Source: a virus | UHGV virus genome: UHGV-1449992 | Direction: 5' to 3' (one strand) | DNA length: 26,750 nt | Shown: in pieces, positions 3,767 through 26,741 of the stretch | How the letters are laid out: the number at the start of each line of letters is the position of its first letter | Numbering within the stretch: the first letter of the stretch is position 1 | Translations under genes and position numbers: made by a program | Notes under the pieces: model-generated | What the model was told of the DNA's origin: nothing | What the model saw: only the letters and a program-made list of their open reading frames with translations | Database searches by the model: none

Positions 3767-4362
3767 AAGTAAAGGCATTCGACTTCGACATTAAGGCCGT
3801 CAACGATGACGGCCTTTTTTCTGGGTACGGTTCTGTCTTCGATGTGGTGGATAGCTACAACGAAGTCGTGGCGCCGGGTGCTTTCCTCGAAAGTATCGAG
3901 GAAACACGGGCGAAGGGGAGAACGTTCCCGGTTCTCTGGCAGCATCGCACCGGCGAACCCATCGGGAACTGGGACATCTCGACCCTGAAAGAAGATAAAC
4001 ATGGGCTTTTTGGTGAAGGGGCCCTGTGGCTTGAAGACGCGGCCTACGCGAAAACCGCCTGGCGGGGCATGAAAACCCGTGCCATTACCGGCCTTTCCAT
4101 TGGCTATTACGTCCGTGAGTCAAATTACGATGAGAAAACCCGGATCCGCACCTTAACGAAGCTCGACCTGGTTGAAATCTCCATTGTTACCGTGCCGGCC
4201 AATGATGATGCGCGTATTGACGTCATTAAGTCGAAGCTGTCACACGGTGATCTTCCTTCCTTACCTGAATTTGAGAAGTTCCTGCGAGAGGCAGGTTTCT
4301 CGAAAAGTCAGTCCGCCGCGGTCGCCTCCCGCGGACTGTCCTATCTTCTTTACCGGAGTTAG
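3742..4362 (+). CDS. Prohead maturation protease (HK97 family); ends at an in-frame TAG that is followed by 28 more sense codons in the same frame
   Basis: 206-aa ORF MYRKNAAMKVKAFDFDIKAVNDDGLFSGYGSVFDVVDSYNEVVAPGAF... typical of HK97-family prohead proteases; GAGGAGA ribosome-binding site before ATG 3742; 3' overlap with the portal gene. Confidence 0.85.
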   Translation: MYRKNAAMKVKAFDFDIKAVNDDGLFSGYGSVFDVVDSYNEVVAPGAFLESIEETRAKGRTFPVLWQHRTGEPIGNWDISTLKEDKHGLFGEGALWLEDAAYAKTAWRGMKTRAITGLSIGYYVRESNYDEKTRIRTLTKLDLVEISIVTVPANDDARIDVIKSKLSHGDLPSLPEFEKFLREAGFSKSQSAAVASRGLSYLLYRS

Positions 4363-7514: not shown

Positions 7515-8225
7515 ATGTCAGCACTATTTGAACGCGCCCAAAAAACGGTAGTAATGATTACATCAGTGCCGGTCACTGCGGAAGAACTGGCATCAGCGAC
7601 CTGGCTCAACCTGAGTTGTACCATTAAACAGGCCAGCTTTACCGCTGGTCAGAAAAACGATATTGACGTGACAACGCTCTGCTCCGAAGAAACGGAGAAT
7701 ATCAACGGACTCCCGGCACCGTCTGAGATGTCTCTCTCCGGTAACTTCTACCGCAACCCGGCGCAGGATGCACTTCGTGCAGCATACGATAACGACGGCG
7801 TTTATGGATTTAAGGTTATTTTCCCGTCCGGAAATGGGTTCCTGATGCGTGCTGAGGTGCGTCAGCACACCTGGGATTCACAGGCAAATAGCGTTGTTGC
7901 TGCGACTTTCTCCCTTCGTCTGAAGGGTAAGCTGAGCAATATCGATGCCTCCGGCATCCTTGCATTTAGTAGCGATCTGCCAGTCACTGAATCAGTTACT
8001 GCCGGGAGTCCACTTTCCTTAAGTGTGGTGGCTACAGGTGGTAAAGCTCCATATACCTACGTATGGAAAAAAGGTTCGTCAACCATCAGCGGGCAGACCA
8101 GCGCAACGTTTAATAAGGCCAGTGCAGTTTCTGGTGATGCCGGTGTTTACTCCTGTGTAGTCACTGACTCTGCCACTCCGGCGAACGTTATCACCTCATC
8201 TGACTGCACCATCACCATCAGTTAA
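7515..8225 (+). CDS. Major tail protein with C-terminal Ig-like (Big_2-type) domain
   Basis: GGAGG ribosome-binding site before ATG 7515 (the six-frame ORF starts at 7503); C-terminal region ...SGDAGVYSCVVTDSATPANVITSSDCTITIS is Ig-like; position before the G/T pair. Confidence 0.8.
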   Translation: MSALFERAQKTVVMITSVPVTAEELASATWLNLSCTIKQASFTAGQKNDIDVTTLCSEETENINGLPAPSEMSLSGNFYRNPAQDALRAAYDNDGVYGFKVIFPSGNGFLMRAEVRQHTWDSQANSVVAATFSLRLKGKLSNIDASGILAFSSDLPVTESVTAGSPLSLSVVATGGKAPYTYVWKKGSSTISGQTSATFNKASAVSGDAGVYSCVVTDSATPANVITSSDCTITIS

Positions 8226-8255
8226 TGGAGCGCCGGGAAACCGGCGATAAACTTA

Positions 8256-8660
8256 ATGTCAAAACAGAATCTTAAAGCGCTGGCGCTGGCCCCGATGGCG
8301 GGTTTTCGTAAAAAAGAAGTCACCGTTCCGGAATGGGAAAACGCCAAAGTTATCATTCGTGAACCATCGGCTGAGGCCTGGATTCGCTGGCAGGGGATTG
8401 CCAGCCCGGAACAACCAAAACTACCGGAAGGGCAGGAAGCGCCAGAGGTGCCAGAACTGACCCCTTCAGAACGCGCGTTCCGCACGATGCGGGCAGATGT
8501 CACACTCTTCATTGATATTCTGCTGGATACCGACCTGCAGTACGTTTTCACCGTCGATGATACCGAACAGGTTGAAGCAATTTATGGCCCTGTCCATTCC
8601 CGGTTGCTGAAACAGGCGCTTGATCTCATTCGTGATGCGGATGATGCCAAAGCAAAGTAA
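8256..8660 (+). CDS. Tail assembly chaperone (lambda gpG analogue)
   Basis: 134-aa acidic ORF immediately before the tape-measure region, followed by an overlapping -1 frame ORF. Confidence 0.7.
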   Translation: MSKQNLKALALAPMAGFRKKEVTVPEWENAKVIIREPSAEAWIRWQGIASPEQPKLPEGQEAPEVPELTPSERAFRTMRADVTLFIDILLDTDLQYVFTVDDTEQVEAIYGPVHSRLLKQALDLIRDADDAKAK

Positions 8661-8968
8661 AAATGCCTGGCATGCAGTTCCTGATGGCGCTGGCGCTCCG
8701 GATGGGACGCACGCTGGGCGAACTGCGACAAACCATGACGGTTGGCGAATTCAGAATGTGGGCTGAATACGACCGTATCAGCCCGATCGGTGATATCCGT
8801 GGCGATATTCTCAATGCCCAGCTGGTTTCAGCGATGTACGGGGCGCAGGGCGGTAAAGTCACCATCGAAGATGCTCAACTCAAGTGGAGCACAGAAGAGG
8901 ATGAGGTAATCGACAGTGGCGATCCATTTGCCGGATTAGAGGCCGCTTTGCTCGCAGCATCGGAATAA
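8645..8968 (+). CDS. Tail assembly protein T-like extension, likely expressed as a G-T fusion by -1 programmed frameshift
   Basis: The -1 frame relative to G is open from 8645 to TAA at 8966-8968 and overlaps the last 5 codons of G; the A-rich sequence GCC AAA GCA AAG TAA AAA sits at the end of G. Translation ...MTVGEFRMWAEYDRISPIGDIRGDILNAQL... is gpT-like. Confidence 0.6.
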   Translation, partial: CQSKVKMPGMQFLMALALRMGRTLGELRQTMTVGEFRMWAEYDRISPIGDIRGDILNAQLVSAMYGAQGGKVTIEDAQLKWSTEEDEVIDSGDPFAGLEAALLAASE

Positions 8969-8983
8969 AATTGAATCGTCTCC

Positions 8984-9010
8984 AGCCTCGCTTCAACGCG
9001 GGGCTTTTTT
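8984..9010 (+). terminator. Rho-independent terminator after the G-T genes
   Basis: AGCCTCGC-TTCAA-CGCGGGGCT stem (one G-U pair) followed by TTTTTT. Confidence 0.55.
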
Positions 9011-9154
9011 ATACCCAAATTTCACCGCGCATCTCACGCGCACTTCACACAGAACCTTTCAGGATGAGCCTTGAGGATACCGGCTGGCTGTCGGTGCCTT
9101 TCTGTGGGCCGGATTCCTGTGAGACAAGGTTCATCACTAAAAGGTAATACCGAT

Positions 9155-9910
9155 ATGTCTAACATTGTCCCCATGAATTATGATGACCATTCATTCCCTT
9201 TTGCTTCTGATTGCTGGTTTAATGCCACAGTTGCTGCAAAGCATCACAGGAAGAGAGTGAAGAACTGGACAATTCTGGAGTCAACAAGGGATTACGTTGT
9301 CGAGTTGGCGCAAGAGCTTGATATTGAACCATTCAATTCTAAAGGGCAGATTTCTACCCTTTTAATTAGGATTGAGAAAGGCCGTTATGGCGGCACATGG
9401 ATGCACCCAGAGTTGGCCGTTGAGTTCGCCCGTTGGTTGTCAGTCAAATTTGCCCGCGCCTGCGACCGCCACATTAAAAATTTGCTGCTGAGTAAAAATT
9501 TTCAGCTCACTGAAGATCAGATTGTCGGCCTCATGGTCTGCCAGCAACCCAGTTCCTGGGAAAAAAGGTTTAAAGACCCGTTCTACCAGGCACTGTCGAA
9601 AATGTCCGGCATTCCTTATTTTGGTCATGTCGGCGGATGTCCGGCGTTGTTCGGTCAGATCACCGCTCGCTGGGTCTACGGTGTAGCACTTCCTGATTAT
9701 GTCTATCAGGCAGCTAAACAGGCAGCCGGCAACAGCAAGGAGAAGATTCATCAGCATCTTAAGCCGGATGCGCTGGAGAAGGTCGAGCAGCAACTGATCG
9801 CCGTCACAAACATTGCCAGTTGCAGCATTGACCAGAAGGACTTTGAGGCCCGTTGCATGGCTGCCTTTCCTGTCAAAGGGCAGATGAAGCTGCTGTATGC
9901 GGCGGCATAA
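9155..9910 (+). CDS. KilA-N domain protein (N-terminal KilA-N DNA-binding domain; C-terminal region possibly P63C-like); accessory gene
   Basis: ATG 9155 preceded by AAGGTAA. N-terminus ...FNATVAAKHHRKRVKNWTILESTRDYVVELAQ...RIEKGRYGGTWMHPELAVEFARWLS has the hallmarks of KilA-N; not a structural gene. Confidence 0.65.
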   Translation: MSNIVPMNYDDHSFPFASDCWFNATVAAKHHRKRVKNWTILESTRDYVVELAQELDIEPFNSKGQISTLLIRIEKGRYGGTWMHPELAVEFARWLSVKFARACDRHIKNLLLSKNFQLTEDQIVGLMVCQQPSSWEKRFKDPFYQALSKMSGIPYFGHVGGCPALFGQITARWVYGVALPDYVYQAAKQAAGNSKEKIHQHLKPDALEKVEQQLIAVTNIASCSIDQKDFEARCMAAFPVKGQMKLLYAAA

Positions 9911-9912
9911 CC

Positions 9913-10170
9913 ATGAATAACCGAATCGTTGAGTGCGCCTCCAGAGCGGGGCGCGACTTCTCTGAGTTCATGAAAGGCGAGAAGAACATGATGGAGGCGC
10001 TGCGGTCTGCGGAGGAATTCACCGAGCAGTTACGCATTCACGGCTGCGTTAATCACCATTTCGTCAATTTCATGATGATGAAAGCGATAATGAAGGTGTT
10101 CGACGATATGCAACGCGAGGAGCAGCGTGAAGAGCGCCGAAGAAAACGAGCAGAAAAGAAAGGCAAATAG
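9913..10170 (+). CDS. Small hypothetical protein (85 aa) with strongly basic/acidic C-terminal tail; accessory gene
   Basis: ATG 2 nt after the KilA-N stop codon (translationally coupled geometry); C-terminus DDMQREEQREERRRKRAEKKGK. Confidence 0.45.
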   Translation: MNNRIVECASRAGRDFSEFMKGEKNMMEALRSAEEFTEQLRIHGCVNHHFVNFMMMKAIMKVFDDMQREEQREERRRKRAEKKGK

Positions 10171-10186
10171 CCCACCCGTGTGGGCT
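10169..10186 (+). terminator. Stem-loop after the small accessory gene (weak terminator or RNA-stability hairpin)
   Basis: AGCCCAC-CCGT-GTGGGCT perfect 7-bp stem overlapping the stop codon; poor U-tract. Confidence 0.35.
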
Positions 10187-10202
10187 TTCATCGCTAACTA
10201 CA

Positions 10203-10253
10203 GCGATCCTTTTGCAGCCTTAGAGGCCGCTTTGTTTGCAGCATCAGCTTGAA
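10203..10253 (+). pseudogene. Remnant 3' end of a second T-like tail assembly gene (recombination scar)
   Basis: About 48 nt with 6 mismatches relative to 8919-8968; translates SDPFAALEAALFAASA* versus the authentic T C-terminus GDPFAGLEAALLAASE*. Confidence 0.6.
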
Positions 10254-10328
10254 TTAAACAACGATAGCTGAAGTCTTTCTTAACCAATGGTAGGATTTGA
10301 GTACTTTTCTACCTTTTGGGATAAAAAA

Positions 10329-10850
10329 ATGAAAAAAATATTGGGTGTTTTATCTTTAGTCGTTTTTGCTATAGCATTTATTATTGCGTTAAGGCAACCA
10401 ATATCAATCGTATTTCTTATTGCTGTTTTGGCGATTCCTTTAAAATATATAGATAAAATTGGCGGAGAGATTGCTTCTCTTTTGATAATATTCGGTTCTA
10501 TCTTTGTTTTGTTTTTTGTTAACTCAATGGTTCCTTTATGGGGGGAGAGGTATGAGAATCATGAGGAGTTAGTGAGAATTAGCGAGAGCGATAGGCAGAA
10601 AAGATACAACAATATGAATGTTATATCAGCAAGCAACTCTGGTGTTAAGTCTGCATTAAAAGACCCTGAATCCGCAACCTTCAAAAATCAGAGCGTTGGT
10701 CGTGAAGGGTATGTGTGCGGTCAGGTAAATGCTAAAAACAGCTTTGGTGCATACGCCGGGTTTAAAAGGTATGTAAGTAAAAATGGCATGACAATTATTG
10801 ATGATGGCGGATCTGAATTTTCGAAACTATGGGGCGAGATTTGTAAATGA
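10329..10850 (+). CDS. AT-rich accessory membrane protein (about 3 predicted TM helices plus a soluble roughly 100-aa C-terminal domain), function unknown
   Basis: ORF with visibly lower GC than its neighbours; hydrophobic N-terminus KILGVLSLVVFAIAFIIAL...IVFLIAVLAIPL...LLIIFGSIFVLFFV. Alternative in-frame start at 10287. Confidence 0.6.
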   Translation: MKKILGVLSLVVFAIAFIIALRQPISIVFLIAVLAIPLKYIDKIGGEIASLLIIFGSIFVLFFVNSMVPLWGERYENHEELVRISESDRQKRYNNMNVISASNSGVKSALKDPESATFKNQSVGREGYVCGQVNAKNSFGAYAGFKRYVSKNGMTIIDDGGSEFSKLWGEICK

Positions 10851-10870
10851 TACATTCTTGCTAATTAAAG

Positions 10871-10893
10871 AAAACCGCTTAGGCGGTTTTTTT
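10871..10893 (+). terminator. Rho-independent terminator after the membrane-protein gene
   Basis: AAAACCGC-TTAG-GCGGTTTT followed by a T run, directly upstream of the tape-measure start. Confidence 0.6.
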
Positions 10894-10911
10894 ATATCTG
10901 CGAGGATATAA

Positions 10912-13900
10912 ATGGCAACTTTACGCGAGCTTATCATTAAGGTTTCAGCAAACTCTCAATCATTCCAGACTGAGATCGCCCGCGCATCACGCATGGGGCA
11001 AGACTATTATAAAACTATGCAGAATGGTGGGCGTCAGGCTGCTGCTGCTGCGAAGGAAAGCCAAAAAGCTCTTTCCGAGTTAACGGATGGATTTGCTTCA
11101 GCGGGTCGAGCTGCCACAATTGCAGCTGCAGCATTTGCAACAGGAAAACTGGTTCAGATTGCAGACCAATGGAACTCAGTAAATGCACGGCTTAAACAAG
11201 CCTCAGTGTCTACGAATGATTTTACTTTATCTCAAACCCGATTAATGGCGATCAGCCAGAGTACGGGCACTGCTTTTACTGATAACGCTAATTTATTTTC
11301 ACGCGCGGCAGCATCAATGCGTGAATTTGGCTACAGCTCAGATGAAGTACTCAAAATCACCGAAGCGGTATCAACAGGACTAAAACTATCTGGTGCAAGT
11401 ACAGAAGAGGCCGGCTCTGTTATTACCCAGTTTAGCCAAGCGCTTGCTCAAGGTGTTTTGCGTGGCGAAGAGTTTAACGTGGTTAACGAAGCCGGGGATC
11501 GTGTCATCCGTGCCCTGGCTGCTGGTATGGGGGTTGCCCGAAAAGATCTTAAAGCGATGGCTGACCAGGGGCAACTCACGATTGATAAAGTCGTACCAGC
11601 ATTAATCAGCCAGTTAGGTGTGTTACAGGGGGAGTTTTCCTCGTTACCGCCGACAGTTTCCGGTTCAATGCAAAAAGTCACTAACTCCTTTATGGCATGG
11701 GTTGGAGGGGTAAACCAGGCTACTGGTGCAACAGACGCACTTTCTGGCGGTCTTGATGGGCTGGCAGGTACGCTGGATTCTCTTACATCTTCTGCTGTCA
11801 GCGGGGCCCTCAGTGACGTAGCAGATAATATGTCACTAATTACCACCGCCGCAGGTGGCCTAGTTGGGATCGGATTAGCCCGGTATCTTGGCGGGATTGT
11901 TACCAGCGCAAGCAGCGCTACTGGCGCACTTATTTCAGCCGCAAAATCTGAAGTAGCCCTTGCAGTAGCCCAGGAAAAAGCCGCGCAATCTTCCGTTGCT
12001 GCTTCCCGCGCCGCAGTTTATCGTGCCCAGCAAGCCCTTCAGAGTGCTAAAAGTGCAGATGTTCAGGCCGCACAACAGGAGAGGGTTGCAGCCGCAGAAG
12101 CAAAGGTTACTGCTGCACAAGGTCGATTGACTACAGCCCTCGCCACCGGGACAGCTACAGAAAAAGTACGAGCACGAACAGCTTTGGAGCGGGCTCAGGC
12201 CGGACTTGTGGCAGCAAAAAATGCCGATGCACAGGCTATTGCAGAAAGAAAACTTGCCACAGCTCAAGCGGCGCTTAGCCGTAATATTTCAGGTAGGGTT
12301 TCTGCTCAAAATAACCTTAACAGCGTTACCTCTGTCGGCACCCGGTTGATGAGCGGGGCTCTTGGGCTGGTCGGTGGTATACCCGGGTTAGTAATGCTGG
12401 GTGCTGGCGCATGGTACGCTATGTATCAAAGCCAGGAACAAGCAAGAAAATCAGCTCAGGAGTATGCCAGCCAAATAGATCAAATCAGAGAAAAAACCTC
12501 CTCAATGACCCTACCTGAGGTCGATAGTAATCGCAGATTATCGGTTGAGGCGATGCAGGAACAAAAGCGCCTAATCGAAGAACAAGAACGGAGCGTTAAA
12601 AGTCTTAACGGACAAATAAAGGATTTAAATGAAAGTAGAAACAAGCCAGGCATTACTCAAGAAAATGATTTGAATATTACAAAGGCTATCGCAATTCTTA
12701 CCGAACAGATTGTCGTAGAAGAAGACAAGCTTCGTCAGATGCGAGAAAAGGCAAGCGATATACTAAAGGCGCAGGAGGAACAAGAAAGAAGAAGAAACGA
12801 TCTTATTAAAGATCGCGCCTGGCGTCAAAATGCTGAATACCAGAACCTTGTAATGATGACTGGTAAGTATTCCGAAGTTAACCGTTTACTTGGATTGGGA
12901 AACCAGCTTTTAATGGAACGGCAGGGCTTGGTTAACGTGCCAATGCGAATGCCTCAGGCTGATTTAACATCTCAACAAACAGCCGCACTGGAAAAAAGCC
13001 GCCGGGATTTAGATCTCTCTACACGTAAAGGCGAAGACAAGGAGCGCACCAGACTTGGCTATGTTGCAGATGATTTGGGGCTGAAGGATGAACCTCAATT
13101 CCAGACCGGAAGACAAGAGATAATTAATAATGGCATTAAAGAATGGAAAAATAACGAGGCAAATAAACCCACCCGGAAAGCGCCAAAAAGCGAAGAATTA
13201 AAAGCCGCCGAGAAGACAGAAGATGTTTACAAGCGTCTTATTAAACAGCAGGAAGAACAAATCGCTTTGGGAAGCCAGAATACCGAACTGGCTAAAGTCA
13301 AATACCAGGTGACGCAGGGTGAATTAGCTTCTCTTGAACAAGCCAAAAAAGAAATAATTCTGCAAAATGCAGCGCTTATCGATCAGAAAAACATTGCTGA
13401 ACAGTTAAAAACGTTCCGTGAGGGGCTGGCTGACAGCAACGCTGCTGCTCGTGACCGGGGAAATATTGATTTTCTTGGCGCCGGGATGGGGGATAAGGCC
13501 CGCGACCGCATGAAGGAAATGGCAGATATTCGTACTGATTTTCTCAAACAGCAGCGCGACCTGCAGCGGGATTTCAGCAAAGGTCAGATTTCTGAGGACC
13601 TGTACAAACAGCAAACGGAAGCGCTTCAGGCGGCGCTTACTGAACGGCTCCAGATTCAGGAGGACTACTACAAGAAAACCGATGAACAGCAGTCAGACTG
13701 GCGGGCGGGGATCAGCGATTCACTGATGAACTACGCCGATCAGGCTGCTGACCTCAGTTCAATGGCTGCCACCGCAACCAGCGAAATTCTGGATGCCACC
13801 ACTAACTCTATCTCCAACAACCTGACCAGCGTCCTGACTGGTGCGACTTCGTTCAAAGATGGGATGTCGAACATTTTCAGCTCTCTGGGTGAAACGGTGA

Positions 13901-14493
13901 TTAAGACGTTGATACAGATGGCAACACAGGCGCTAATCACCAAAGCGATTATGGCGTCGTTCGGCGGTGGGGCTGGTGGAATGTTCGGGAGTCTTCTTGG
14001 CGGAGGTGGGGGAGGTGGCAGCACCGGGACGGCCATTCAGAGCGCTGGTGCTAATCTTTCGTTTAATGCTCTGGGTGGTGTCTACGATTCACCTTCACTT
14101 TCCGCATACAGCGGCGGTGTATACAGCACTCCGCAGTACTTTGCGTTTGCGAAAGGCGCGGGCGTGTTCGGTGAAGCGGGACCCGAAGCGATTATGCCCC
14201 TTACCCGTGGCGCTGACGGTTCGCTGGGGGTTCGTGCGGTTGGACGTGAGTCACCGGCAGTCCAGGATGCTGCAAGGCAGCAGCAGGAAAGACAACTTCT
14301 TTCAACAGGTGATATCAACGTCAATTACCACCTCACAGGTAAACCTGATGATGTGATGATGCAGACAATGGATGCCCACGGTCGCCGCCTGGCTAAACAG
14401 ATTAAATCTGAACTGACGAGCGACGTTAACAATCCTCAAAATGCTTTCGGTAGAGCACTTTACTCCAACCTTCAGCCCAAAAAACCACGATAA
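10912..14493 (+). CDS. Tail tape measure protein
   Basis: 1193-aa ORF, Ala/Gln-rich coiled-coil-like body, Gly-rich stretch near the C-terminus; position after G/T. Confidence 0.9.
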   Translation: MATLRELIIKVSANSQSFQTEIARASRMGQDYYKTMQNGGRQAAAAAKESQKALSELTDGFASAGRAATIAAAAFATGKLVQIADQWNSVNARLKQASVSTNDFTLSQTRLMAISQSTGTAFTDNANLFSRAAASMREFGYSSDEVLKITEAVSTGLKLSGASTEEAGSVITQFSQALAQGVLRGEEFNVVNEAGDRVIRALAAGMGVARKDLKAMADQGQLTIDKVVPALISQLGVLQGEFSSLPPTVSGSMQKVTNSFMAWVGGVNQATGATDALSGGLDGLAGTLDSLTSSAVSGALSDVADNMSLITTAAGGLVGIGLARYLGGIVTSASSATGALISAAKSEVALAVAQEKAAQSSVAASRAAVYRAQQALQSAKSADVQAAQQERVAAAEAKVTAAQGRLTTALATGTATEKVRARTALERAQAGLVAAKNADAQAIAERKLATAQAALSRNISGRVSAQNNLNSVTSVGTRLMSGALGLVGGIPGLVMLGAGAWYAMYQSQEQARKSAQEYASQIDQIREKTSSMTLPEVDSNRRLSVEAMQEQKRLIEEQERSVKSLNGQIKDLNESRNKPGITQENDLNITKAIAILTEQIVVEEDKLRQMREKASDILKAQEEQERRRNDLIKDRAWRQNAEYQNLVMMTGKYSEVNRLLGLGNQLLMERQGLVNVPMRMPQADLTSQQTAALEKSRRDLDLSTRKGEDKERTRLGYVADDLGLKDEPQFQTGRQEIINNGIKEWKNNEANKPTRKAPKSEELKAAEKTEDVYKRLIKQQEEQIALGSQNTELAKVKYQVTQGELASLEQAKKEIILQNAALIDQKNIAEQLKTFREGLADSNAAARDRGNIDFLGAGMGDKARDRMKEMADIRTDFLKQQRDLQRDFSKGQISEDLYKQQTEALQAALTERLQIQEDYYKKTDEQQSDWRAGISDSLMNYADQAADLSSMAATATSEILDATTNSISNNLTSVLTGATSFKDGMSNIFSSLGETVIKTLIQMATQALITKAIMASFGGGAGGMFGSLLGGGGGGGSTGTAIQSAGANLSFNALGGVYDSPSLSAYSGGVYSTPQYFAFAKGAGVFGEAGPEAIMPLTRGADGSLGVRAVGRESPAVQDAARQQQERQLLSTGDINVNYHLTGKPDDVMMQTMDAHGRRLAKQIKSELTSDVNNPQNAFGRALYSNLQPKKPR

Positions 14494-22614: not shown

Positions 22615-25600
22615 TTAAAGACACGCTTTCCAGCAGTACAGACCTCCGTGATCGTATGTCGATGCGCCGTTACCCAGACCTTCATACAAATCGGAACGGT
22701 CAAAGGAAAGCATAAAAAGCTCCGTTTCATCTCCATTAGTGAACGGGACCAGCGTGCACCATGGCCCCGTTGTGTTCGGAGCCAGATACACATCCTGCAC
22801 AAATTCCCCCAGGAAGGTCAGACCTGCCTCATACTTGCGCAGATGCAGTCGGTTGGCCGTTCCTCCGCTTGTCAGGTAGGTTGTCTCGCCGAAATGAACG
22901 AACTGATTCCCGGTATCGCGCACGCCAGCAGGGACTTCTGCCGTCGTATATTCCGGCACAATACCGTCGTACAGCGTCGGGCTCCGGAAGGTTTTGCATC
23001 CACTGGAGATGGTGTTTCCCGTCATCACCCACTGGCTGCTCGACGTTTCATAGTAGAAATCAATATCCTCCACGTAGCTTGCCCCGATCCCGAAAAAACT
23101 GCCGTTGGCGTTCTTCAGTTGCACGGAGTTTCTGACGATGATCACGCCGCCCTGCAGCAAGTCCTGTTTCGTCTCAAAGTACAGTTTTGGTCGATTGTTA
23201 TCGGCCAGCCCTTTCCCCTGATAGTCCATACCGCAAGAGATGCCCTTCCAGCTCTGACTGTTCCGGTCATACACCGCCTTGATACTGTCATCACCCAGCA
23301 CGACATCCTCATCGGTTCCGTCAGTCCGAACCTGGAAAATCGCGCCCACCATCTGCACTTCACCGCTGTTGAAGTTGATACGGACTATCTGAGTGTACAG
23401 GTCGGAGATAGTGGTCCCTGTTCCCTCAACGAGAAAATAAAGCCAGTTACCGCGCTGAATAAACGTCCCGTCTTCATAGGTCAGAAAGCGAATGGAGACG
23501 GAATTCGCCCCGCTGGCAATTCGGTTTGAAAAACCACTAAAGACAGCAATATCACTGGCCGAATATGCATCCGTTTGTGCGAACACGTACGTTTTCCACG
23601 TGTCCAGGTATTCCAGCCTGCGGGCATCAAAGATGGCATAGTGCTCATAGCGGCCAATCCATTTCCACGTCCCGTCAGCGTTCACTTTTTTTAGCAGCAG
23701 TGACACCCCGGTATTCTGCACCTGAAGCACTGCGCCGGTCATATCCGAACCGGTGAACGTGGTGGTATCAAGCAGACTCCCTGCGGCGTAGATTTCACAG
23801 ATAACCTGGCTGTTCGAGACGCGGACCGAAACACTGTTCTGCTGGTCAACATCCGCGAACATTATCCCCATCGTGGCATTGCCTGCCAGCCTGTCGATCG
23901 CGATCTCACTGGTTGCAAAGGGCATATAGCGATCCGCGAACATCACCACCCGGCCATTTGCTGTCGGGTTACGGAAAGAGACCTTTCCTGCTGACCAGGA
24001 ATAAGCAAACACATTCCCGGCGGTGATATCGTAAATATTGCTCTGCAGATTCCAGGGATTGTTTTCCAGGTCCATAAAAGAGAGCATGAACGAGTCAGCG
24101 GCATTGTAAAAATCGCGACGCGCCCACTGCTTAGTGAAAGTGTATTCCAGAGGGTTGCTGAAACTGTCGAAGTCAGGCGTCTTTTCAGGCAGCCCGGATA
24201 AATCGACATGGTAAGGCGCGTTAAAAACTTTTGCTTTTACCTGACTGCTCCGCGAGGACTGCTCAATCATGGCGGATACGTCATTGAATCTGGCGACCTG
24301 ATTGGAATAAATCTTCCTGACGGCGTATACGGGATCGGTTGTTTTTCTGACGCGCACCGCAACGTAACCGTCCTGTGTGGCCACTCCGCGATACGTTGCC
24401 GTCACATATCCGCCGCCCGATTTGAAGGTGAAGAGGTCCGACACCCACCCCTTGTCCGCGTCACATTGCATGATATAGGCGATAAGTTCTCCGACGGTGG
24501 CGGAGCCGTACTGCCCGTACATCTCGACAGAGTCGCCTTTTCGCACCGGGATGTAATACATCCGCCAGACACTGTAAGCAGAGCCGGAGACGATATTACC
24601 GCCGCTGTACATTACTGAGTTATCAGCAATGACTGATGCCACGCTGGTATAATCGATGGTTTTTACCGGCCCTCTGAGGTCTGATGCAAAAGCTTTATCC
24701 TGAGACGTCCGTGTTATGGTTGCCGCGGGTGTGGTGACGCGTACGCGCACGTAAACGAAACCATCCTGGGTTGCCACGCCGGCCATTACGCCGTTACTGG
24801 TGACACCCGGTGATGTGTAAGTGGCAAGATTAGCCACCACCGCCATTGCCGCATCCAGCTGAATGATATAAGCAATAACTTCGCCTGCCGTGCCGGAGCC
24901 GATTTGCCCGAAATAGCGCACGATATCCCCCGCGCGAACAGGAACATACGCTGCTTTCCAGTTCTCACCTGCGGTGTCAGAAATCATTCCGCCTGAGTAT
25001 ATAACCCGCCCCGTGATAGTGTATGTATCCGGTGCACTGGTCACGTCCAGGGTTGTTCTGTTAGCCGCAGCAATATCGGCCGGGTTCATTACAGCGTATA
25101 CGTTGCCGGGCAGGGAAAACAGTTGAGTGGTCTTTGTAATGGTTGCTGCCGGATCAGTCACACGCACCCGGACATAAACAAAACCATCCTGTGTGGCGAC
25201 ACCAGTCATAACACCAGCGCTGGACGAACCGGGCGAAGTATAGGTGGCGAGTGGCGCCACAAATTTCATCGCACTGTCGAGCTGGATGATATAAGCCAGT
25301 ACCTGGCCCGAAGTGCCGGAGCCGATTTGGCCGTGATACTGAATAACCTCTCCTGCTTTCACGGGCAGATAAGCTGCTTTCCAGCTATCTCCTGCGTTGT
25401 CCACCACCGAACCATCCGCTGACATGACACGCCCGATAATATATGTGGTGGTTGAAGCATTAGTGACATCCGTAGTCACGCGGTTGGCCGCATTCACAGA
25501 CGTTACAGTTTTGACGCCGAATACATCTGCGCCGGGTGTGAACCGCTCTCTGCTCTGATAAATCGCCGCTTCCGGCGTGGTCACCCGCACACGGAAGTAA

Positions 25601-26694
25601 GCGAAACCGTCCTGGGTTGCCACGCCCGATAAAACACCTGTCTTTTGGACTCCTTCCGACGAATAAGTCACCAGATTCCCCACCACATTAAGGCTGGTGT
25701 CGAGCTGAATTATGTACGCCATCAGCTCGCCGGGAATAGCGCTACCAATCTCACCGTGATATTCGAGAGCATCCCCCTTTTTTACGGGAACGTAAGCAGC
25801 ACGCCATGACTCCCCGGCGGAATCTGTGCGGGTACCATCGGCATAAATCACCCGCCCGATCACCCATGCAGTACTTTGAGATGAGGTAATATCAACAAGC
25901 GGTTTATTCGCCAGTACGTTCTGATAACTGGCATAGCTTGCTACCCCTCCGGCGGCATCAATATCTGCCTCCACCAGAATTGTTTTTTTGCGCTGCGTCA
26001 GGGTGAATTCTGCCGTATCCCTCACCCGGACGTAAATATACCCGTCCTGAGTCGCAACTGCTGACAGAGTGGCTTTATCCGTTACGTTCCCGGTTGATGT
26101 CCACTCAGCCAGAGATGCCACGAATGCTTTGTTGGCGTCCAGCTGGATAAGATACGCTATCTGTTCGCCAGCAGTGTTAGAGCCCACTGTTCCGCTATAG
26201 GTGACGCTCTCGCCCGCCCTGACTTTCAGATACCAGGCATTCCATGTAGGACTCGATGCAGTAGAGCCATCAGCATATATCACCAGTCCGGCAACAATTT
26301 CCGCATCGCTTTTAGCATCCCCTGTTATGTAGCCCGTTTTCAGAGCGCTCATCGACGGCATAGCTCTGCCGGTAGCTGCCAGTGTGCCACCGTTATTAAT
26401 GTACTCATCCGCCAGTGTGCCGCCATCAGGGCTGCGTACATAGGTTGTTGAGCCATCCGGGATGTTTGCAATATCAGCCTGAGCCGCTTCAATCGTCATG
26501 TACTGCTTACTCAATGGCACAAGGTTCTGACGAATCTCGTCATTTTTCGCCATGAATCCGCGCCAGGTATCCAGATCAACACCCGCGCGATCAGGCACGG
26601 TGAAAGCGTCCGAATTCACCAGGTTATCCAGGCGCTCAGCGTTATCGCGCAGAACCGCCGGAGAAGCACTCCCCAGAGGAGGATTAAAGGCCAT
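22615..26694 (-). CDS. Tail fibre/spike protein B: same N-terminal anchor domain as protein A, five tandem copies of a roughly 140-aa domain, distinct roughly 570-aa C-terminal module
   Basis: Probable start at the ATG complementary to 26692-26694 (MAFNPPLGSASPAVL...), with the same leader as gene A; the six-frame ORF extends 10 codons further to 26724. First 110 aa are about 75% identical to protein A. Confidence 0.8.
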   Translation of the reverse strand: MAFNPPLGSASPAVLRDNAERLDNLVNSDAFTVPDRAGVDLDTWRGFMAKNDEIRQNLVPLSKQYMTIEAAQADIANIPDGSTTYVRSPDGGTLADEYINNGGTLAATGRAMPSMSALKTGYITGDAKSDAEIVAGLVIYADGSTASSPTWNAWYLKVRAGESVTYSGTVGSNTAGEQIAYLIQLDANKAFVASLAEWTSTGNVTDKATLSAVATQDGYIYVRVRDTAEFTLTQRKKTILVEADIDAAGGVASYASYQNVLANKPLVDITSSQSTAWVIGRVIYADGTRTDSAGESWRAAYVPVKKGDALEYHGEIGSAIPGELMAYIIQLDTSLNVVGNLVTYSSEGVQKTGVLSGVATQDGFAYFRVRVTTPEAAIYQSRERFTPGADVFGVKTVTSVNAANRVTTDVTNASTTTYIIGRVMSADGSVVDNAGDSWKAAYLPVKAGEVIQYHGQIGSGTSGQVLAYIIQLDSAMKFVAPLATYTSPGSSSAGVMTGVATQDGFVYVRVRVTDPAATITKTTQLFSLPGNVYAVMNPADIAAANRTTLDVTSAPDTYTITGRVIYSGGMISDTAGENWKAAYVPVRAGDIVRYFGQIGSGTAGEVIAYIIQLDAAMAVVANLATYTSPGVTSNGVMAGVATQDGFVYVRVRVTTPAATITRTSQDKAFASDLRGPVKTIDYTSVASVIADNSVMYSGGNIVSGSAYSVWRMYYIPVRKGDSVEMYGQYGSATVGELIAYIMQCDADKGWVSDLFTFKSGGGYVTATYRGVATQDGYVAVRVRKTTDPVYAVRKIYSNQVARFNDVSAMIEQSSRSSQVKAKVFNAPYHVDLSGLPEKTPDFDSFSNPLEYTFTKQWARRDFYNAADSFMLSFMDLENNPWNLQSNIYDITAGNVFAYSWSAGKVSFRNPTANGRVVMFADRYMPFATSEIAIDRLAGNATMGIMFADVDQQNSVSVRVSNSQVICEIYAAGSLLDTTTFTGSDMTGAVLQVQNTGVSLLLKKVNADGTWKWIGRYEHYAIFDARRLEYLDTWKTYVFAQTDAYSASDIAVFSGFSNRIASGANSVSIRFLTYEDGTFIQRGNWLYFLVEGTGTTISDLYTQIVRINFNSGEVQMVGAIFQVRTDGTDEDVVLGDDSIKAVYDRNSQSWKGISCGMDYQGKGLADNNRPKLYFETKQDLLQGGVIIVRNSVQLKNANGSFFGIGASYVEDIDFYYETSSSQWVMTGNTISSGCKTFRSPTLYDGIVPEYTTAEVPAGVRDTGNQFVHFGETTYLTSGGTANRLHLRKYEAGLTFLGEFVQDVYLAPNTTGPWCTLVPFTNGDETELFMLSFDRSDLYEGLGNGASTYDHGGLYCWKACL
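24325..26340 (-). repeat. Intragenic tandem repeat: five copies, period about 393-435 nt, each encoding a domain ending in the motif VATQDG(F/Y)xYxRVR(V/K)T
   Basis: Repeat-end codons map to about 26016, 25581, 25158, 24735 and 24342 on the minus strand; the DNA copies are recognisably similar (e.g. GTCACCCGCACACGGAAGTAAGCGAAACCGTCCTG versus GTGACGCGTACGCGCACGTAAACGAAACCATCCTG). Confidence 0.75.
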
Positions 26695-26741
26695 GTTTTT
26701 GCTCCAAAAAAGGCGTTCGCGCAAACGAGGGTTTGAGCGAA
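26390..26741. repeat. Right arm of the inverted repeat (leader plus 5' end of fibre gene B)
   Basis: Reverse complement matches 18947-19300 (identical leader, about 80% identical coding part). Confidence 0.8.
26716..26741. other. 26-bp hix/gix-like near-palindrome (right copy, inverted relative to 18947-18972)
   Basis: TTCGCGCAAACG-AG-GGTTTGAGCGAA is the exact reverse complement of the left copy. Confidence 0.45.

Follow-up and report, generated by a model that had tools for sequence, protein, structure and literature searches.

Why does a phage tail module carry the end of one of its own genes twice? The question is raised by the virus genome UHGV-1449992, whose full 26,750-nt stretch (hereafter the window, to which all plain coordinates refer) encodes an HK97/lambda-like head and tail module. 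Within it, the tail assembly gene T is followed by a pair of genes headed by a KilA-N gene, then by a second, diverged copy of the T 3′ end, and then by an AT-rich membrane-protein gene. We consider it probable that the second copy is an old recombination scar, that is, a T 3′ end displaced to the edge of an insertion, which has since been reused as a short homology arm for the exchange of modules. The scar is common to a family of Klebsiella-type prophages. The sequences concerned are as follows.

8663–8968, plus strand: tail assembly gene T, 101 codons (Pfam Phage_tail_T, E = 6e-18), with a final GAA TAA that comes from the insertion.
8919–8961, plus strand: repeat copy 1, the functional T 3′ end, encoding (G)DPFAGLEAALLAAS, as defined by the repeat alignment and by comparison with relatives.
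10203–10252, plus strand: T 3′-end remnant, a 43-nt core (10203–10245) followed by AGC TTG A, the natural Ala-stop ending; apparently non-coding here.

Positions 10203–10245 and 8919–8961 are equal at 37 of 43 nucleotides without gaps, at an offset of 1284 nt. Carried to both stop codons (8918–8968 against 10202–10252), the match is 40/51, and over the last 48 nt of the two copies it is 38/48, lower than the ‘about 42 of 48’ given in the preliminary description of this DNA. Translated in the T frame, the second copy ends in SDPFAALEAALFAASA-stop and the authentic T in GDPFAGLEAALLAASE-stop, which bears out the claim made there of a second, diverged T end in frame with its own stop. That stop is a TGA at 10250–10252, so that the element ends at 10252 and not, as first given, at 10253; 76 nt separate it from the ATG of the membrane gene (10329). 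The alignment check against chance similarity that had been proposed rules chance out: the runner-up 43-mer in the whole window, on both strands, matches at 23/43, and none of 2000 shuffles attained the local alignment score. An assembly artefact is likewise ruled out, because the identical arrangement is present in independent contigs (L007, L014 and L099).

Relatives without the intervening DNA place the two copies in relation to each other. In L093 (an IMG/VR contig), L001 (Klebsiella phage vB_VIPKPNMC05) and L002 (a prophage of E. coli W409) the order is T, membrane gene and tape-measure gene with nothing else between, and L093 is 97.6% identical to the window over 10203–10911. Window 8049–8961 aligns with L093 3378–4299 and window 10203–12500 with L093 4257–6554; because these two flank alignments overlap, both window copies pair with the same L093 segment, 4257–4299. 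The window thus holds an insertion flanked by a 43-nt direct repeat, with the following parts.

8962–10202, plus strand: 1,241-bp insertion relative to L093, L001 and L002; at the left junction GCAGCATC is followed by GGAATAA, and at the right junction CTAACTACA is followed by GCGATCC.
8984–9011, plus strand: terminator-like hairpin and T-run at the left end of the cassette, present wherever the cassette occurs, with differing stem sequences.
9155–9910, plus strand: KilA-N and P63C gene, the first gene of cargo A (Pfam KilA-N 1.5e-17, P63C 2.6e-11; phrog_1136).
9913–10170, plus strand: 85-aa gene of unassigned function, the second gene of cargo A (phrog_875, E = 1.6e-51).
10169–10189, plus strand: terminator-like element at the right end of the cassette, hairpin GCCCACCCGTGTGGGC then TTTC, common to cargo A and cargo B loci.
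10190–10202, plus strand: 13-nt spacer ATCGCTAACTACA from terminator to remnant; the version in relatives is 11 nt longer.

The left junction lies within T, 7 nt short of its natural end. Natural alleles continue from GCAGCATC with AGCTTGA (Ser-Ala-stop) and the window continues with GGAATAA (Ser-Glu-stop); the insert therefore provides a new last codon and stop. The remnant at the other edge agrees with natural T ends plus the sequence downstream of them. The preliminary description was right to see in the second copy what remains of a T 3′ end at a recombination junction, as opposed to a fresh tandem duplication. An insertion flanked by direct repeats is also what a transposon would leave as a target-site duplication, but a 43-nt repeat of 86% identity is far above known target-site duplications and the repeats follow different natural alleles. 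Moreover, no terminal inverted repeats were found at the insertion ends (8962 and 10202), and Pfam and PHROG searches with the insert proteins gave no match to a transposase, integrase or other recombinase family. Transposition is, in our judgement, extremely unlikely. The right junction also contains a perfect 6-bp inverted repeat (ATCGCT-AACTAC-AGCGAT, 10190–10207), which reaches across the spacer into the opening bases of the remnant; it was found only in the variant with the spacer shorter by 11 nt (the window and L031) and is probably incidental.

A closer look at related loci shows how widely the arrangement is shared. The survey set comprised 80 IMG/VR loci encoding close T homologues, 58 of them uninserted and 22 inserted. 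Uninserted loci have one T end each, their T has Ala, Val, Gln or Lys as its last residue before the stop, and the gap from T to the tape-measure gene is mostly 277–660 bp, with three loci at 1432–1585 bp; the two of these three that were examined (L068 and L071) contain open reading frames (ORFs) resembling insertion sequence (IS) transposases. In the inserted loci T ends in Glu or His plus stop (22/22, against 0/58 of the uninserted), T is always followed by the same left-end sequence and terminator, and the gap to the tape-measure gene is 1331–3299 bp. A second T end lies 827–1574 nt downstream in 20 of the 22. Pattern scans across IMG/VR recovered the left junction, GC(A/T)TC followed by GGAATAA, in 23 contigs and the right junction, CTAAC(T/A)ACA followed by G(C/T)GATCC, in 15, and the left-end sequence was never found outside the T context in IMG/VR. 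Among species-representative genomes the arrangement occurs only in L099, a Raoultella metagenome-assembled genome 85–88% identical to the window, and the T-to-cassette junction was absent from INPHARED phages and from the complete E. coli genomes searched. A Bradyrhizobium match (L100) was rejected as an isolated 20-nt chance match with no further similarity.

These loci bear on the simplest history, a one-off unequal crossover in the immediate ancestry of the window between parent A (T, membrane gene, tape-measure gene) and parent B (T, KilA-N pair), from which remnant and membrane gene would have been inherited as one block. Parent-A-type phages do exist, namely L093, with its high identity from the remnant to the tape-measure gene, and L001 and L002, with the same gene order, and the remnant has both the natural AGCTTGA ending and the natural downstream leader. 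However, about 22 contigs have identical junctions around other cargos and ahead of other downstream genes, and the 85–95% identity and differing modules of the junction-bearing contigs argue against their clonal descent from this phage. The window remnant is near-identical to that of cargo-B loci with a different downstream gene, and it is about 5-fold more diverged from L093 than is the membrane gene. Nor was a parent B found: no locus has a clear intact order of T, KilA-N pair and tape-measure gene. The two inserted loci from which the remnant is absent, L035 and L044, were considered for this part; they seem derived, because the right-end terminator of the cassette is missing too, and they look like later deletions or replacements. 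A single recent crossover is therefore unlikely. The preliminary description had proposed such a private two-parent event, in which the KilA-N pair arrived with a different T, and had suggested a search for a parent with T followed by KilA-N. It is partly supported, being right in outline, but its history is too simple: the junctions recur in the 23 and 15 contigs above and in the Raoultella genome, the left junction lies inside T, Glu and His endings are confined to inserted loci, and the event was neither recent nor a simple cross of two parents.

The same junctions enclose two cargos. Cargo A, the window type, consists of the KilA-N/P63C gene and the phrog_875 gene, and cargo B of a single KilA-N protein of 185–190 aa (phrog_129). 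At least five contexts occur downstream of the remnant; four of these have the same ending and following sequence as a natural T allele from an uninserted locus of the survey (examples by context are L034, L069 and L093; L063 and L095; L085; and L057, L033 and L052); the fifth has no uninserted counterpart among the surveyed loci. When the loci are clustered segment by segment, T allele, left end, cargo, spacer, remnant, downstream module and tape-measure start reassort among them. The recurrence of the same left and right breakpoints with two cargos and several downstream contexts argues for a single origin of the junctions. In one class of loci, with second T ends at 1563/1574 nt, cargo A is followed by about 320 nt with a 114-codon ORF that reads into the remnant (L020 5536–5880; also L013, L016, L017, L021, L022, L026, L028 and L030) and ends in GDPFAGLEAALLAASQ-stop, the C-terminal peptide of T. 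This ORF could be a real fusion gene or an accidental one, and in L021 it is truncated by a stop inside the remnant. It was rejected as a diverged second T, having no Pfam or PHROG match and resembling T only in its last ~17 codons. L099 has conserved flanks and junctions, but over the N-terminal two-thirds of the KilA-N gene its sequence is unrelated to that of the window (L099 2429–2977 against window 9165–9740), which makes a further mosaic breakpoint inside a cargo gene.

Natural T ends comprise 30 distinct sequences in the 58 uninserted loci, with strong synonymous variation, and keep the peptide core DPFAGLEAAL with one exception (1/30 distinct). The remnants, in comparison, have a nonsense or missense change in this core in 8 of 12 distinct sequences. 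In-frame stops are found in two (L021 and L040–43) and core missense changes in six more, with Gly to Ala in the window, L023, L025 and L038 (the last with an additional Ala to Asp), Ala to Thr in L027 and Ala to Ser in L032. A Fisher test on a conservative count of 7/12 remnants gives p = 2e-4; the changes are partly shared by descent and the count is therefore not one of independent events. Only 16 codons are left in the second copy, which does not show the purifying selection expected of a functional T (Phage_tail_T).

A role as the C-terminal end of a downstream-reading ORF, or as part of the control region of the membrane gene, could explain why the copy is retained in 20/22 inserted loci and why, in the 1563/1574-nt class, the 114-codon ORF runs on into an intact GDPFAGLEAALLAASQ-stop. 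That ORF, however, belongs to no Pfam or PHROG family, several remnants have the in-frame stops and core missense changes just described, and two loci have no remnant at all. In the window the corresponding ORF, of 41 codons (10127–10252), was rejected as a gene: it is GTG-started inside the preceding gene, crosses the terminator hairpin and ends in a remnant that decays in relatives. As for control, about 50 nt separate the end of the remnant from the putative transcription start downstream of it, and Rfam gave no meaningful match over the region, the sole match at E ≤ 1 being a sub-threshold rsmX at 10737–10893. Retention for function is very unlikely, and 10203–10252 is best read, from its sequence, as a non-coding, decaying pseudogene fragment. 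The divergence between the copies, previously taken as the mark of a second T allele, is in part the product of this decay.

If the remnant is a scar, has it also been used? The sequence that follows it is relevant here.

10253–10299, plus strand: conserved 47-nt leader ending TGGTAGGATTT, a module boundary, perhaps with an extended −10 element (by eye).

In L040 the remnant differs from the natural allele of L063 at 6/17 positions at its start and then at 0/58 (p = 6e-5), and the derived bases in its 5′ part are common with the L032 remnant, which has another downstream context. In L025 the first 17 nt equal the window remnant, including the derived C responsible for Gly to Ala, and the rest follows L085. 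The general pattern is for the 5′ part of the remnant to be linked to the cassette and for the 3′ part to match the natural T end of the downstream module. Copy 1 mirrors this, its last few 3′ bases co-varying with the left-end variant of the cassette and its 5′ part with the T allele. Crossovers inside the remnant are read from few informative sites, but the remnant appears to have served as a crossover site: like a linker, it is a conserved short sequence at module boundaries in several combinations, with crossover points inside it.

The leader tells a similar story for the membrane gene. The window remnant and that of L023, a locus with cargo B and, downstream, a 127-aa lipoprotein gene, differ by 1 nt, and the leader is identical or 1 nt different among the window, L023, L093 and L069. 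Directly after GGTAGGATTT the sequences split into a membrane-gene type (window, L093) and a lipoprotein type (L023, L069, L040). Mismatches to L093 amount to 8/97 in remnant and leader against 14/800 (~1.75%) in the membrane-gene region (p = 0.001), and the last 160 nt of T differ from L093 by ~13%. Because the remnant is near-identical to that of L023, and remnant plus leader are more diverged from L093, the membrane gene was most likely swapped in later, via one crossover in the leader (10253–10299) and another in or beyond the tape-measure gene. Remnant and membrane gene were probably not inherited as one block. The earlier suggestion that the membrane gene followed T in one parent holds in so far as such phages exist (L093, L001, L002), and fails in so far as its joint inheritance with the remnant is improbable.

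The leader ending AACCAATGGTAGGATTT is kept upstream of different small accessory genes (window, L023, L069, L093, L040), and a related motif, AACCAATGG...GGAT, is found in front of the lipoprotein genes downstream of the cassette in L003, L112 and L113. The sequence TGGTAGGAT at 10288–10296 resembles an extended −10 element by eye and may be a candidate promoter of the downstream accessory gene; a sigma-70 consensus scan made no call there, and called no site on the plus strand anywhere in 8600–11000.

What was observed is the anatomy, the sharing of the junctions among loci, the decay of the remnant and the mosaicism; from these we infer the founding event and the recombination pathway. In the ancestral layout a short conserved leader and a single small accessory gene would have stood between T and the tape-measure gene. 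A recombination in which two T-bearing genomes took part would then have joined a terminator-bracketed KilA-N cassette to it, at points separated by 43 nt. The left breakpoint would have fallen 7 nt before the natural end of T, leaving it functional with a new final residue and stop, and the right breakpoint 50 nt before that end; because of these two positions the last 43 nt of T would be doubled. At least the right junction would be illegitimate, and the left one presumably survived because it hit the last, naturally variable codon of T. From then on the cassette would retain the inner part of each T-end copy. It could spread with T on the left and the remnant or leader on the right (also the terminators) as homology for crossovers with related phages, which would reshuffle T allele, cargo, downstream accessory gene and tape-measure gene independently. 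Precise excision of the cassette by recombination between the two T-end copies would be expected from time to time and would leave a T of natural appearance. Relaxed, phage-type homologous recombination probably makes such crossovers. Phage Rad52-like recombinases act on short, ~12% diverged sequences, with a minimal pairing segment of 23–27 bp (De Paepe et al. 2014, PMC3945230).

Several points weigh against this account. Where remnants and foreign T ends agree perfectly, the runs are mostly below 20 nt, shorter than the published minimal pairing length, and crossovers inside the remnant should therefore be rare. The window, which holds structural genes only, has no recombinase gene, and for this reason the pathway is an indirect conclusion. 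A pattern scan for the left 20 nt of the cassette (8962–8981) did not find their donor (scanned without the T part, they occur in the same T-linked contigs only), and so the founding event is not reconstructable. The left junction could be homologous rather than illegitimate, formed in a T allele that naturally ended in Glu-stop. Some of the apparent chimerism could be uneven decay, and the 1563/1574-nt class, which differs upstream of the remnant, may represent a separate junction or else an insertion of later date.

A different route to the same anatomy is Campbell-type integration, in which a circle or linear fragment carrying one T end entered by a single crossover, homologous or KilA-N-mediated and site-specific, and regenerated the repeats. 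As such integration predicts, the element is bordered on both sides by direct repeats of the target 3′ end and brings with it the sequence that restores the gene. It also predicts the chimeric repeats observed, the inner part of each copy being cassette-linked and the outer part resident-linked, and both cargos encode a KilA-N DNA-binding domain. A two-arm double crossover accounts for the same pattern, however, and neither cargo has an integrase or recombinase family match. Moreover, no surveyed locus has three T ends or tandem cassettes, and in three unrelated tail modules a ~85%-identical cassette is present with no repeat of the upstream gene end. We find this route rather unlikely. Returning to the scar, a bolder extension can be offered tentatively and falls well short of being our expectation: the KilA-N cassette may be a homology-guided mobile unit that needs no recombinase of its own and travels on the inner halves of the two 43-nt T ends. 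If so, Red-type recombination would drop it into the T to tape-measure slot of related phages, restoring T, or excise it precisely. This would be a distinct route of accessory-gene spread, with a duplicated 3′ end of the upstream essential gene as its signature.

The cassette itself also occurs in other tail modules. The KilA-N/P63C and phrog_875 genes with both hairpins are found at ~85% nucleotide identity in at least three unrelated tail clusters (window 8982–10192; L003 2984–4189; L113 2432–3661; L004 3001–4195; L112 2501–3695), of siphovirus type in L003 and L113 and sheath-bearing in L004 and L112. It always lies between tube or chaperone genes and the tape-measure gene, a slot preference that could reflect selection or targeting, and in these other clusters a conserved 60-nt leader and a variable lipoprotein gene follow it. 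A duplicated gene end as a general signature of cassette insertion was rejected, as it was not seen in L003, L004, L112 or L113. L113 and L004 have no upstream gene-end repeat above chance, and a weak 17/22 match in L003 is no copy of an upstream end, because the same sequence follows the cassette in L004, L112 and L113.

How does the locus compare with known systems? Prophages and islands that target tRNA or tmRNA genes integrate at the 3′ end of the gene, restore it and leave attL and attR. Here, too, direct repeats of a gene 3′ end flank the cassette, and T is completed by cassette-borne sequence. Unlike such elements, the cassette has no integrase, its repeats are diverged (86%) and decaying, the same cassette is found elsewhere without such repeats, and the restored T end differs by one residue. 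Susskind and Botstein are said to have framed module exchange among lambdoid phages in a modular theory, and Clark et al. in 2001 reportedly described short conserved boundary (‘linker’) sequences in these phages. As with those linkers, short conserved stretches stand at the module changes (the T end, two terminators, the remnant and the 47-nt leader) and combinations are reassorted among relatives, with at least one remnant a clear chimera; the difference is that the right-hand linker here is a displaced gene fragment made by insertion and not a natural intergenic sequence.

It was to a gene in the slot between the tail chaperone genes and the tape-measure gene, HK97 gene 15, that the name ‘moron’ was originally given (PMC3594210). 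That source presents the gene 15 product as an inner-membrane superinfection-exclusion protein (Juhala et al. 2000; Cumby et al. 2012, both via PMC3594210). The window resembles HK97 in having extra DNA in this slot, an AT-rich membrane gene with a terminator-like hairpin after it and an HK97-family tape-measure protein; its membrane gene encodes a small inner-membrane-type protein in the gp15 position, a likeness by position. It differs in stacking two accessory units, the KilA-N pair and the membrane gene, and in that the upstream unit is joined inside T and not between genes, leaving a duplicated T end. As is usual for morons, 8962–10202 is extra DNA relative to relatives with adjacent flanking genes (L093, L001, L002), and terminator-like hairpins accompany the accessory units at 8984–9011 (with a T-run), 10169–10189 and 10871–10897. 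The membrane gene also deviates in base composition (33–39% GC, against 50–56% in the tail genes), while the KilA-N pair, at 43–54%, is not clearly distinct. With respect to relaxed Rad52-like recombination (PMC3945230), the difference is that recombinase involvement is here deduced from the pattern of exchange.

Scar and reuse fit established ideas, i.e. illegitimate joints filtered by selection, short linkers and relaxed recombination, and do not point to a novel type of system. The usual evidence for phage mosaicism is an abrupt change in similarity, and it is seldom that a scar recording the installation of a cassette is preserved. Here both breakpoints are fixed to the nucleotide, and one of them, at the last variable codon of an essential gene, shows what selection tolerates. 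The reuse of the scar as a 17–50 nt homology patch would illustrate in nature both the linker idea and relaxed recombination acting on very short, diverged sequence. In practical terms, stacked accessory or defence-type genes between the chaperone genes and the tape-measure gene of Klebsiella and Raoultella prophages can be found by a simple marker, a second T end downstream of a T whose last residue is Glu or His.

The remaining features around the site are as follows.

8256–8660, plus strand: tail assembly chaperone gene G (Pfam Phage_TAC_1, E = 5e-44).
10329–10850, plus strand: AT-rich membrane-protein accessory gene, 173 aa (phrog_16400 and phrog_2320; 33–39% GC; 98% identical to L093).
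10871–10897, plus strand: terminator-like hairpin 3′ of the membrane gene; the scan called it on the minus strand, and the plus-strand T-run after the stem was read by eye.
10912–14493, plus strand: tape-measure protein gene (Pfam Phage_HK97_TLTM, TMP_3 and Tape_meas_lam_C).

The slot before the tape-measure gene accepts many types of insertion. In L068, L071 and L025 the gap contains reverse-strand ORFs of 307–397 aa that resemble IS transposases (by eye, from position and size) and that split or displace the small accessory gene. Further along the window, downstream of the tail-fibre region, a 1369-codon ORF on the minus strand (22615–26724) has weak, sub-threshold Pfam matches only, and the 1186-aa plus-strand protein encoded before it has a C-terminal GDSL lipase/acylhydrolase domain.

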